From a virus, in UHGV virus genome UHGV-0213645: a stretch of 43,486 bases of DNA, one strand, 5' to 3'. Numbering within the stretch: the first letter of the stretch is position 1; each line of letters opens with the position of its first letter. The position numbers and the translations under genes were made by a program. The notes under the pieces are model-generated. The model saw only the letters and a list, made by a program, of their open reading frames with translations. It did not search any database and was not told the DNA's origin. This document shows positions 14,288 through 37,731 of the stretch, in pieces.

Positions 14288-14533
14288 ATGAACAAGATCG
14301 ACTGGAAGCGTAAACTCACGTCTCGAAAGTTTTGGATGGCCATTGCGGGCTTTGTCTCCATGCTGGTTGTGGCGTTTGGAGGCTCCGAAAATCAGGCTAC
14401 GCAAATTACGTCCCTGATCATGGCCGGTGCCGCCGTGGTCGCCTACATCATCGGCGAGGGTCTGGCCGACGCATCCGGAGCAGGCACTTCCGGCACGGAA
14501 CAGACCGTTGAAAAACCGCCCGAACAGATGTAA
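14288..14533 (+). CDS. Holin
   Basis: IDWKRKLTSRKFW motif, two transmembrane helices, YIIGEG..D. Confidence 0.8.
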   Translation: MNKIDWKRKLTSRKFWMAIAGFVSMLVVAFGGSENQATQITSLIMAGAAVVAYIIGEGLADASGAGTSGTEQTVEKPPEQM

Positions 14534-14539
14534 CAGGGG

Positions 14540-14743
14540 GTGATCCCCATGCGCTTTGATCGCATCCATCAATCGCGCATCGACGCGGCGGAGGCCGCCT
14601 ATGGCCTGACGGACGACGAGCGCGAGGTGCTGTCCCTGTCCCGGCGCGGTAAATCCGTCGTCGCCATCGGTATGGAGCTGGGAATGAGCACCCGAACCGT
14701 CAGCCGCCGCAGAGCGGACATCATGCGCAAGATCAACACTTGA
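14540..14743 (+). CDS. LuxR/GerE-type HTH-only transcriptional regulator
   Basis: GLTDDEREVLSL..RGKS..AIGMELGMSTRTV..R...I.RKI motif. Confidence 0.7.
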   Translation: MIPMRFDRIHQSRIDAAEAAYGLTDDEREVLSLSRRGKSVVAIGMELGMSTRTVSRRRADIMRKINT

Positions 14744-14747
14744 CAAC

Positions 14748-14769
14748 GCCCCCTTCGGGGGGCTTTTTT
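14748..14769 (+). terminator. Intrinsic terminator
   Basis: GCCCCC-TTCG-GGGGGC followed by TTTTTT. Confidence 0.9.
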
Positions 14770-14785
14770 ATTTTGCAAAAAGTGG

Positions 14786-14814
14786 TTGACAAACGGACAA
14801 AAAGATGGTATTAT
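14786..14814 (+). promoter_or_regulatory. Sigma-A promoter of CRISPR-like small RNA
   Basis: TTGACA (14786-14791), 17 bp spacer, TG-N-TATTAT (14809-14814). Confidence 0.8.
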
Positions 14815-14839
14815 AACAGCGTCGGGAGATAATCCCGCT

Positions 14840-14914
14840 GTCAGGAAGCAATTCCTGTGAATTGAAACGAAAACAGAAATGGAAACGATCATGATCTCAT
14901 GGTCGCATCCGCAA
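14840..14914 (+). CRISPR. Type I-C-like mini-array / solitary repeat unit: repeat, 33-nt spacer, partial repeat
   Basis: GTCAGGAAGCAATTCCTGTGAATTGAAAC (14840-14868; GTC start, CAGGAA-GCAA-TTCCTG hairpin, GTGRATTGAAAY tail as in I-C repeats). Spacer 14869-14901. Then GTCGCATCCGCAA, resembling the 5' part of an I-C repeat. No cas genes in the genome. Confidence 0.75.
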
Positions 14915-14916
14915 AG

Positions 14917-14944
14917 AAGCCTTGCACTGCGCAGGGCTTTTTTG
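14917..14944 (+). terminator. Intrinsic terminator of CRISPR-like RNA
   Basis: AAGCCTTGC-ACTGC-GCAGGGCTT followed by a T run. Confidence 0.85.
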
Positions 14945-15050
14945 TTGCCCAAATGGCGCGAAGCTGGCGTGAATGTGGCGCTTTTACATCCGTGTTTTGT
15001 GCGACAATCAGCACACCGGGAAACCCGGAATAACACAAGGGAGGATTCTC

Positions 15051-15632
15051 ATGGACGTTGAATACACTCGCAGAGGCCAAGGCAATCTGAACACTGTGCT
15101 TGGCGCAATCGGCACGGCTGGCGCTGTTGGCATCCTGAACGGCGGCCTAGGCGGCCTGTTTGGCGGCGCGCGCACCGTGAACGTAAACGGCAACGGCGAA
15201 TGCAGCGAAAACCACCTGGTGGATCGCTACGAAGCCTCTCAGCAGGCGAAAATTGCCCAGCTTGAGACCGAAATTAAGCTGCGCGACAGCAACATCTATA
15301 CCGATCAGAAGAGCCTTGCGTTGTACCAGTACATTGACGGGCAGATCAAGGAGATTCGTGGTGAACTGTCCGATCAGCGCGTACACAACCAGCGCACCGA
15401 GGATAGCTTTGTCCTGGCGCGCCAGGATCTGGCTACCGTTAAGGCCGAGCTGGACGGCAAGATCAAGATGGAAGCCGAAAAGCGCTGCTGCGGCGATAAC
15501 TCCATCGTGACCTACGCAAACGCCACCTTCTACCCCAAGCAGGTTGCTGACGTGACCGTAGGCACTGCCACCACCGCGCAGAGCACCTATAATCCGCTGC
15601 CCAAGTGCGGCGATTGCTGCTGCAACAACTGA
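15051..15632 (+). CDS. Hypothetical protein (Gly-rich hydrophobic N-terminus, coiled coil, Cys-rich tail)
   Basis: ATG 15051 after GGGAGG. Ends KCGDCCCNN. Confidence 0.7.
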   Translation: MDVEYTRRGQGNLNTVLGAIGTAGAVGILNGGLGGLFGGARTVNVNGNGECSENHLVDRYEASQQAKIAQLETEIKLRDSNIYTDQKSLALYQYIDGQIKEIRGELSDQRVHNQRTEDSFVLARQDLATVKAELDGKIKMEAEKRCCGDNSIVTYANATFYPKQVADVTVGTATTAQSTYNPLPKCGDCCCNN

Positions 15633-15693
15633 CAAAAGCGGGAGGGCTGGCGCTGACCGGCTCTCCCCGTTTTTCTGATTGGAGGATTACGTA

Positions 15694-16041
15694 ATGGTTA
15701 GTATTGAGACCATAGAGCGCGGCCTTGCTCAGTATATAGACGCTGAATTGCTGCCTAAATTGCCGCAGGACGGCCTTAAAGGCTTTGGCGTGCGGTCGAT
15801 GGCTACGGCTATTGTAATGCGCGGTGGACGGCTCCTGAGCGCTTACGCGACCTGGAAGCCTGCGCAGATCATGGGCGCTATTACGCCTGACGGCGCAGTT
15901 GATATAGATTTTTTGCGCGATGTTTTCAAGGGCGGCATCCAGCAGGGCGGCCAGAAAATTGATTTGCCGCTGGGCGTGTCGCTGAGAATTACGCCTGAGG
16001 ATGTAGATCACATATACAGCTACATCATGCAGGCGCAGTAA
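15694..16041 (+). CDS. Hypothetical protein
   Basis: ATG 15694 after GGAGG. Co-oriented with its neighbours. Confidence 0.65.
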   Translation: MVSIETIERGLAQYIDAELLPKLPQDGLKGFGVRSMATAIVMRGGRLLSAYATWKPAQIMGAITPDGAVDIDFLRDVFKGGIQQGGQKIDLPLGVSLRITPEDVDHIYSYIMQAQ

Positions 16042-23331: not shown

Positions 23332-23407
23332 GCCGGTGTAGTTCAAGAGGCAGAACGGCGCACTTGTAACGCGCGCGTTGTCGGTTCGATTCCGGCCACC
23401 GGCTCCA
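23332..23407 (+). tRNA. tRNA-Thr(TGT)
   Basis: 76-nt cloverleaf: GCCGGTG/CACCGGC acceptor, GTTC/GAAC D-stem, CT-TGT-AA anticodon loop (one A-C mismatch in the stem), GTCGG-TTCGATT-CCGGC T-arm, encoded CCA. Confidence 0.85.
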
Positions 23408-36603: not shown

Positions 36604-36709
36604 TTGCCAGGCGGATTGCGCTATGCTATAATGTAGCTGCATCCTCTGGCTTTGGTAGGTTGGTGTGGTGCGCTGCCGTCTGCAAGCTGCAACTTGTAGG
36701 CGGCTTTTG
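36604..36709 (+). ncRNA. Putative ~70-nt antisense sRNA with own promoter and terminator
   Basis: TTGCCA-17-TATAAT with extended TG (36604-36632), then hairpin GCCGTCTGCAAG...CTTGTAGGCGGC-TTTT. Confidence 0.5.
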
Positions 36710-36850: not shown

Positions 36851-37201
36851 TTAGTCTTCTTCATCTTCATGCATCCAATCGAAGGCGTCTTCATAATCTT
36901 CTTCGCATTCAATTAGCGGGAAATCGTCTCTTGTTGAGCGCCGCCAGTTGCCGCGATCCCATATGTACGGCAAAGCGTTATTTTTTGGCACGCGGATGCA
37001 TACGCCATCATCAGTGAGGATTCGTCCATGGCTTTCAACAGTTTCTACATCTTCGGCAAGGTAGATATAGGGCTTATACGGCTTGCCATCGCTATACCAC
37101 TCTGTAAATTGGTTCGCGATCATCTTCGCTTCGCGCAAAGTATCGCTTTCACCCCACCATGTGGTTTCGTATTCTCCCCCGATTACCTGATACTTTTTCA
37201 T
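36851..37201 (-). CDS. Small acidic protein, anti-CRISPR/anti-defence candidate
   Basis: 116 aa with a very acidic C-terminus (EEDYEDAFDWMHEDEED). AAGGAGG RBS. Directly downstream of the RHH gene. Confidence 0.6.
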   Translation of the reverse strand: MKKYQVIGGEYETTWWGESDTLREAKMIANQFTEWYSDGKPYKPYIYLAEDVETVESHGRILTDDGVCIRVPKNNALPYIWDRGNWRRSTRDDFPLIECEEDYEDAFDWMHEDEED

Positions 37202-37234: not shown

Positions 37235-37399
37235 TCAGGGGTCCTTGCTCTGGTTGCGTTCCGCGTCCTGCGCAATCAGCATGCGGATGTAGGCCGATCG
37301 GCTCATTCCGTAAGCTGCTGCGCGCTTGTCCAGGTAGTCCGATAGCTCGCGCGTCAGCACTACACAGGTCGTTGTCTTGTTTCCGTCCTTTTTCAGCAT
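37235..37399 (-). CDS. Ribbon-helix-helix (CopG-like) regulator, Aca-like (54 aa, not in ORF track)
   Basis: AAGGAGG RBS. TTTCVVLTRELSDYLDKRAAAYGMSRSAYIRMLI is a beta strand plus two helices with the G.SRS.YIR motif. Confidence 0.8.
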   Translation of the reverse strand: MLKKDGNKTTTCVVLTRELSDYLDKRAAAYGMSRSAYIRMLIAQDAERNQSKDP

Positions 37400-37478
37400 G
37401 ACGGCCCTCCTTTTTATCGTTGACTTTGGTCGTTGTGTGTGATAATATAGGGATGCGGAAGGCTTTGCTATTGGAGCC

Positions 37479-37607
37479 TTAGCGTTTGAGCACTACGATG
37501 ATGTCAGGCATCGTGGTGCTTTCTTCGTTTTCCGACGTTCTTTCGATCTTGACAGTCAATGTAATTGTCTGCCGGATCGTGATCGTCTCCGTTTCTTTTG
37601 CACGCAT
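37479..37607 (-). CDS. Leader small ORF (42 aa, not in ORF track)
   Basis: Perfect GGGAGGTG RBS. MRAKETETITIRQTITLTVKIERTSENEESTTMPDIIVVLKR. Confidence 0.5.
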   Translation of the reverse strand: MRAKETETITIRQTITLTVKIERTSENEESTTMPDIIVVLKR

Positions 37608-37702
37608 AGGCTTTCACCTCCCTTCCTGCGCTGTCCGCGCGGTTGGTAACGTGTCAGCCTATCCGCATCCCCGTGCTGTCGGTTTCCCTCAGGCACATTT
37701 AC

Positions 37703-37731
37703 ATTATATCACAGTTGTATAACCTTGTCAA
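37703..37731 (-). promoter_or_regulatory. Consensus sigma-A promoter of the leftward operon
   Basis: Minus strand TTGACA-aggttatacaactgTGa-TATAAT (17-bp spacer, extended -10). Confidence 0.88.

Follow-up and report, generated by a model that had tools for sequence, protein, structure and literature searches.

The virus genome UHGV-0213645, analysed here as one window of 43,486 nucleotides, carries a crRNA-like gene on the plus strand and, on the minus strand, a short ORF at the head of a leftward accessory region (Table 1). An initial annotation made from the letters alone had tied the two together. It noted that the spacer of the crRNA-like gene partly matches the ORF, called the ORF the leader of the phage's own candidate anti-CRISPR (acr) operon, and proposed that the phage uses host Cascade to tune this operon or that the guide is aimed at competing phages.

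Table 1. Features of the window on which the analysis turns
Feature	Position	Strand	Evidence or remark
sigma-70-type promoter, TTGACA-17-TATTAT	14786..14814	+	read from sequence
leader hairpin of predicted small RNA	14821..14839	+	fold; identical in five copies
degenerate type I-C repeat, 6-bp hairpin and 11-nt handle TGAATTGAAAC	14840..14868	+	predicted Cas5d site
spacer, 33 nt	14869..14901	+	identical in five phage contigs; replaced in G002
second repeat stub GTCGCATCCGCAAAG fused to intrinsic terminator	14902..14944	+	resembles host repeat start GTCGCACCCCGCAAGG
acrIC5 3' remnant (codons 26-66), behind two in-frame stops, without start codon	36716..36838	-	Pfam AcrIC5, E 2.7e-13
54-aa ribbon-helix-helix protein	37235..37399	-	Pfam RHH_1, E 0.0044, below cut-off; conserved in G003
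antisense promoter (37420-37448) and terminator-like hairpin (37488-37521)	37420..37530	+	sequence, fold
structured RNA cassette, ~250 nt	37445..37697	-	MFE -97, z -6.87
42-aa Thr/Ile/Val-rich peptide ORF, not hydrophobic	37479..37607	-	no known family
partial spacer match	37570..37602	-	21/25 at positions 4-28, GCG flank, without seed match
consensus promoter (12/12), head of leftward accessory region	37703..37731	-	sequence

The unit at 14786-14944 has the anatomy of a type I-C crRNA-like gene, as the initial annotation had read it, and its predicted RNA (14821-14945) has a fold z of -5.9. Both promoter hexamers recur with no more than one change in four relatives, where the spacing sequence differs. 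The repeat handle matches the ends of the host array repeats, GTGGATTGAAAT in G006 and GTGAATTGAAAT in G007; the window handle (14858-14868) fits the G007-type array repeat and that of the four relatives, TGGATTGAAAC, the G006-type. Repeats of the form GTCAG...CTGTGGATTGAAA match host arrays and host CreR-like units, and phage units of one repeat pattern were found at 84 viral loci, 67 of them distinct. The exact window repeat was present in no viral contig in a pattern scan, because the relatives differ from it by one base; the leader pattern was found in 4 viral contigs. No cas family was detected among the 22 window ORFs scanned, which are a subset of the ORFs. Two phages have solitary I-C repeats of their own at the same locus, on the minus strand and upstream of the 15051 homologue (L014 and L016). 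The first 9 nt of the L014 guide recur in the guide of a host CreR-like unit (L210) that has a TTC-flanked target at a promoter; by sequence, the L014 guide is a candidate Cracr. A tRNA gene lies at 23332-23404 of the window (Rfam RF00005).

In the predicted fold, spacer positions 1-12 are single-stranded and positions 13-33 are mostly paired with the spacer itself and with the second repeat stub. Since only positions 1-12 are unpaired in the predicted mature RNA, most of the match to the ORF sits inside a hairpin, which Cas7 might melt. Four other phage contigs (L092-L094 and L267) have the identical spacer, and 4 of the 92 flanking columns vary, a contrast too small to show selection. A further relative, G002 (L001 1290-1400), has the leader and repeat seen in the window, but a different, shorter spacer that contains TATAAT. 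The G002 spacer looks promoter-directed; it found no target in 301 family genomes or 17 genus genomes.

The 42-aa ORF did not turn out to be the leader of an operon; it belongs to a stand-alone mobile cassette. G003 has a promoter and first hairpin resembling those of the window, but they lead into different ORFs; the cassette has thus been inserted at the start of the acr region and is not its leader. Copies that are 84-94% identical (L113, L115 and L121) occur with unrelated flanks in 3 of 101 host-related genomes, L113 between ordinary chromosomal genes, and the cassette is present in 3 of 17 genus genomes, including the chromosome of G006. Its 5' arm (37671-37656) pairs with its 3' arm (37464-37450), and two-sided change was seen in only 2 of 74 pairs among four similar cassette sequences. 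The antisense promoter is predicted to give an RNA of ~75 nt, which covers the 3' end of the ORF and stops 40 nt short of the spacer match; the stem of its hairpin is kept, and the loop varies, in four copies. RNA contigs from all four RNA runs compared with the L115 copy (three studies) cover its cassette span alone, which, as strandless data without a DNA run for comparison, is a weak hint of a discrete cassette transcript. The RNA runs placed on 14300-15700 were chosen via the cassette (no small-RNA cover) and hence have no bearing on expression of the small RNA; an RNA contig bears another I-C spacer, which matches window 15436-15470.

The cassette peptide has a GRAVY of -0.43 and a maximal Kyte-Doolittle 19-mer score of 0.04. 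Twenty close clusters and 17 representatives were found, and one variant is present on 596 contigs of up to 695 kb. Peptides of 42-45 aa are encoded across the window, L113, L115 and L121, and distant relatives have the form MQSKTTEVITIRTTVTTTVKIE...MPVIIVVL. Pfam, PHROG, NCBIfam and PDB yielded no match and the ESM Atlas none that could be used; the AlphaFold model (pTM 0.23) was too poor for searching. Among viral records, in scans that may omit the nearest ones, a peptide alignment of the ORF gave one doubtful match (41%) and the cassette-leader pattern was found in no contig. Besides the tRNA, Rfam returned just a sub-threshold Sib match (E 0.69).

In layout, the cassette recalls type I toxin-antitoxin systems such as txpA/RatA and bsrG/SR4 (PMC8167048): an ORF shorter than 60 aa lies in a highly folded mRNA, a convergent antisense promoter and terminator overlap the 3' end, and the element is mobile among chromosomes and phage. 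It differs from the systems described there in that the peptide is not hydrophobic and has neither a transmembrane stretch nor a family match. The hydrophobic transmembrane peptide typical of type I systems is thus lacking, and we call the cassette type I toxin-antitoxin-like by layout only, which does not establish membership in the class.

The proposal of an acr operon was borne out, as the leftward region is an AcrIC5 locus. In the window, acrIC5 is truncated at its 5' end, and it is intact in G003, G004 and G005; the G003 homologue matches PF22147 (E 1.7e-23, above cut-off) and PDB 7yhr (E 6.7e-9). The 54-aa ribbon-helix-helix protein is, judged by its sequence, a possible acr regulator. 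A 116-aa ORF of no known family (36851-37201) occupies the place that the 5' part of acrIC5 has in relatives and may be a replacement anti-defence gene; neither it nor a 79-aa ORF matched a known Acr. A second antisense unit, with a near-consensus promoter (11/12) and a 12-bp terminator, lies at 36604-36704 on the plus strand. In the acr region of G005, from 31786 onward on the plus strand, there is a 299-aa ORF that may encode an ArdC-type anti-restriction protein.

We re-examined the match itself. The alignment originally given, of spacer 14869-14901 to the minus strand at 37602-37570, is correct, with 21 of 25 bases identical at positions 4-28; over its full length it amounts to 21/33, with mismatches at positions 1, 2, 3, 6, 12, 16, 24 and 29-33. 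The 5' flank is GCG, positions 1-3 are mismatched, and mismatches 6, 12 and 24 fall on the second base of codons in the 42-aa ORF (37607-37479), all as first described. The site is the best-scoring one for the spacer in the whole window; its sequence is identical in L113 and L115, and the L121 copy has three changes.

Shuffling had been proposed as a test of the match, and the outcome was divided: the local match is rare, yet the full-length score is ordinary. Overall, the match is only modestly above chance. We used 5000 mononucleotide and 5000 dinucleotide shuffles of the spacer. The full-length 21/33 was reached by 1055 and 1601 of these, respectively, and the 20/28 identity outside the sixth positions by 145 and 214. 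In contrast, the local score of 17 was attained by only 8 and 15 shuffles, and the 21/25 stretch by 2 and 7. None of 95 other natural phage guides scored 17 in the window, nor did any of 719 column-permuted spacers at any other site. Four of 265 column derangements reached 17, all at the same site; these are probably cyclic shifts and so were not counted as an independent null.

The match is weaker than it looks because both spacer and target are six-base quasi-repeats. Identity at lag 6 is 0.63 in the spacer (P 0.0007) and 0.68 in the target (P 0.0003), and the successive hexamers are ACAGAA, ATGGAA, ACGATC and ATGATC in the spacer and AAAGAA, ACGGAG, ACGATC and ACGATC in the target. Against 1.15 million unrelated natural 33-mers, the spacer scored at least 14 four times and at least 15 twice, compared with averages of 0.9 and 0.25 for its shuffles, so that at scores of 14-15 near-matches to natural DNA are 4-8 times as frequent for the real spacer as for its shuffles. 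Extrapolation from these small counts gives 0.015-0.023 sites of score at least 17 per window, or 0.03 if L225, excluded because it was fetched for a spacer hit, is included; no site scored 16 or more in 13.3 window-equivalents of natural background. The p value of the match is therefore ~0.0004-0.003 by shuffling and ~0.02 against natural DNA; per genome it lies between ~0.001 and ~0.02, for a match selected from a very large scan. The mismatches at sixth positions, which had suggested the Cascade register, have a naive probability near 0.01. Three of the four internal mismatches, however, share one hexamer column (ACG/ATG), so the fairer cost of the register would be about 1 in 6. Sixth-base registers are thus cheap between six-base quasi-repeats, and shuffle tests overstate such matches.

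The host side of the interaction can be followed. G006 and G007, both located via the cassette, encode type I-C cas7 (Csd2) and Cas5d. The stretch retrieved from G006 contains 93 spacers. With up to three mismatches allowed, 18 of them find a target in one or more of five phage sequences; the best match is TTC-flanked for 11 of the 18, and 6 match the window. The type I-C system of this host is thus directed, mostly with TTC PAMs, against the phage family. One G006 spacer matches the ribbon-helix-helix gene at window 37262 (plus strand), where the TTC PAM is intact. In related genomes, 34 cas regions contained 18 repeat-like matches, of which nine were chosen as CreR-like. Five of the nine (L196, L203, L205, L210 and L213) have TTC-flanked targets with a full seed match 64-104 nt upstream, and mismatches at 6 and/or 12; the other four (L194, L195, L198 and L224) have no target within the stretch fetched. 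The rule for a working guide in this clade is therefore PAM plus seed, and the match in the window breaks both parts of it.

These observations bear on whether the phage guide, with host Cascade, represses the acr operon of the phage by binding some 100 nt downstream of the 37731 promoter. In favour of such repression, the AcrIC5 locus is headed by a promoter whose -10 box lies 101 nt before the match, three of the four internal mismatches fall on sixth positions, and the best PAM-anchored seed run in the window (7 positions, TTT, plus strand 37740) adjoins the -35 box of the same promoter. That run, however, is a short A-tract, interrupted at its second position in G003, and no site passed a PAM-plus-seed filter in any of the five phage sequences. 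At the match itself the flank is GCG rather than TTC and the seed (1-5, 7-11) is broken at 1-3, whereas CreA, as described, requires its seed (10.1101/2023.03.10.532045) and in the local CreR-like pairs a TTC flank goes with a complete seed. Nor do guide and target covary: the three complete genomes G003, G004 and G005 combine the identical spacer with an intact acrIC5 and are without the cassette, their best other sites score 11-12, which is chance level, and the best scores in their acr regions are 8, 9 and 12. In the window, moreover, acrIC5 itself is truncated. Since AcrIC5 is described as blocking Cascade-guided repression (PMC7913775), repression of acr by active Cascade would amount to positive feedback. 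Tuning of the acr operon by Cascade is accordingly not supported, and we regard it as highly improbable.

The companion proposal, that the guide attacks the homologous leader of competing phages and that this phage escaped through changes in PAM and seed, fared no better and seems to us hardly likely at all. Some homologues of the peptide do lie on contigs of 43-44 kb, the size of this phage. The three chromosomal copies, however, which have no reason to escape, also show the GCG flank and the seed mismatches, and a TTC PAM would destroy the start of the ORF, as its -3 base is the G of the ATG, which argues against escape. No PAM-flanked homologue was found in viral, metagenome or genome scans, which returned array copies, the cassette itself or unrelated coding matches, nor was a near-perfect PAM-flanked protospacer in another virus, the mark of a mini-array, in the viral and metagenome scans; exact-pattern scans of this kind miss targets with other sets of mismatches. 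A viral scan with the core pattern gave 5 matches, which are array copies or unrelated coding sequence; one with PAM plus seed gave 61 (40 distinct), the best of them 25/33 in AT-rich records unlike the cassette; and none of 33 non-array metagenome matches had TTC or TTT. One of the candidate targets, L410 (TTC, 25/33), was rejected: it is a single AT-rich fragment and, in incomplete records, has no match to the window capsid protein. It is likewise very unlikely that the spacer derives from a cassette copy, acquired once and altered by drift since then, so that the match is a scar without present function. In favour of this, 21 of 25 bases align without a gap to a mobile cassette found in the same hosts as the phage, but capture requires a TTC PAM, with the same conflict at the start codon, and the spacer is unchanged across five phage contigs, contrary to drift. 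Read in the frame of the ORF, the spacer gives K4T, T6M and T10M, whereas K4, T6 and T10 are invariant in 19 aligned homologues; the resulting IMI is present in none of 54 proteins compared, and none of the four cassette copies is closer to the spacer than 21/33.

Pairing of the RNA with an antisense transcript, the third option raised at the outset, is the sole surviving version of a real link, and it requires read-through. In this reading no PAM is needed: whether free or bound by Cas7, the small RNA would base-pair with antisense RNA reading through the cassette of the host chromosome or of cassette-bearing phages, and so change the output of the peptide. As the spacer has the sense of the mRNA, it can pair only with antisense RNA. 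The predicted duplex with the antisense strand (-32.4 kcal/mol) is the best in the window (the next is -25.9), none of 29 shuffles equals it, and mismatches 12, 24 and 29 become G-U pairs at the RNA level; the test, however, comprises those 29 shuffles only and restates the same DNA match. Host chromosomes, including that of G006, bear the cassette, which would explain why the spacer is kept in phages without it. On the other hand, pairing requires read-through of the predicted terminator at 37488-37521, and the predicted antisense RNA ends at 37488-37530; duplexes with this short RNA and with the mRNA are weaker (-19.1 and -14.5, respectively), the predicted fold ties up spacer positions 13-33 in a hairpin, just 3 of the 17 genus genomes were found to contain the cassette, and G002 has a different spacer. 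We therefore consider this explanation unlikely. Its more specific form, in which a CRISPR-mimic RNA, with or without Cascade as a scaffold, pairs PAM-free with antisense RNA of a non-hydrophobic, toxin-antitoxin-like cassette on the host chromosome, appears to us slightly more doubtful still.

The reading that we find reasonably probable is that 14786-14944 holds a mimic of one type I-C repeat-spacer unit, whose RNA is likely cut by Cas5d and loaded on Cascade as a decoy, and that the match to the cassette is probably a coincidence of two quasi-repeats. Cas5d cleaves at the base of the repeat hairpin. A small RNA transcribed from its own promoter would be cut there by the host enzyme, and the processed RNA would load on Cascade and compete with host crRNAs alongside AcrIC5, in a Racr-like manner. 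Against coincidence, the match still beats most nulls, and it falls just behind the start codon of the cassette. The chromosome of G006, a host whose CRISPR targets this phage family, also bears the cassette, so a host-side target is compatible with the lack of a target in the sister phages. If the free 12-nt guide does have a DNA target, this would probably be a cas or toxin promoter in an unsampled host strain, as for Cracr. No PAM-flanked target at a cas or creT promoter was found in the 34 cas regions (best run 7), and no Cracr-type target or similar CreR spacer in 301 family and 17 genus genomes (one incomplete genome per species), the latter giving 5 target-pattern matches compared with 4 for controls. 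Two other candidates were examined. A site at nrdD in G041 (L144 1482-1517; TTT, 17/17 at the 5' end of the spacer, ~60 nt upstream of the predicted nrdD promoter) was judged a chance match: it occurs in 1 of 101 genomes, Cas5d was not found there, and it is absent in 19 other NrdD-query loci. A match beside a promoter in G006 (L153) is an A-tract found at the control frequency.

Comparison with known systems places the unit closest to RNA anti-CRISPRs and viral CreR-like guides. RacrIC1 of Bifidobacterium pseudocatenulatum is co-encoded with AcrIC5 (Camara-Wilpert et al. 2023, PMC10651486), and the likeness to the Racr elements described there is a single phage I-C repeat behind a promoter, without cas genes, in a genome family with an AcrIC5 homologue and with a host of matching subtype. 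The unit differs from that account in having its own promoter 22 kb from the acr locus, whereas RacrIC1 shares the acrIC5 transcript, and in its full-length spacer and second repeat stub. As in a candidate Racr, a repeat hairpin and handle of the host subtype lie behind a promoter, and the host I-C system targets the phage. With the Cracr elements described by Liu et al. (10.1101/2024.10.29.618823), viral crRNA-like RNAs that repress Cas or CreT, it shares a degenerate repeat, spacer and terminator in a phage, a repeat resembling that of host CreR-like units of the same clade, and a swappable spacer, which in G002 holds a TATAAT box. It differs from the Cracr elements of that account in that the searches here gave neither a PAM-flanked target at a cas or toxin promoter nor a host CreR with a similar spacer. 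The partial complementarity, tolerance at sixth positions and closeness of the target to a promoter recall the host regulatory RNAs CreR and CreA (10.1101/2023.03.10.532045, 10.1101/2023.03.03.530964), for which these sources describe PAM-flanked, seed-matched targets in or beside the promoter; in contrast, the match in the window is within an ORF and lacks both PAM and seed pairing. A narrow literature search returned no report of a viral crRNA-like RNA acting either on a type I toxin-antitoxin RNA or on the acr operon of the same virus. The element may already be listed in published tables of Cracr or mini-array candidates.

If the RNA-level link were true, it would connect an RNA anti-CRISPR to the control of a separate, RNA-regulated peptide module, and viral crRNA-like RNAs would gain a new class of target. 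More may be learned from the cassette itself, a probably transcribed RNA of toxin-antitoxin-like layout whose peptide belongs to no known family. The most likely reading, a decoy RNA with a coincidental match, adds one candidate type I-C RNA anti-CRISPR, paired with AcrIC5, in a family of phages of gut Clostridia, with its host and PAM traced.
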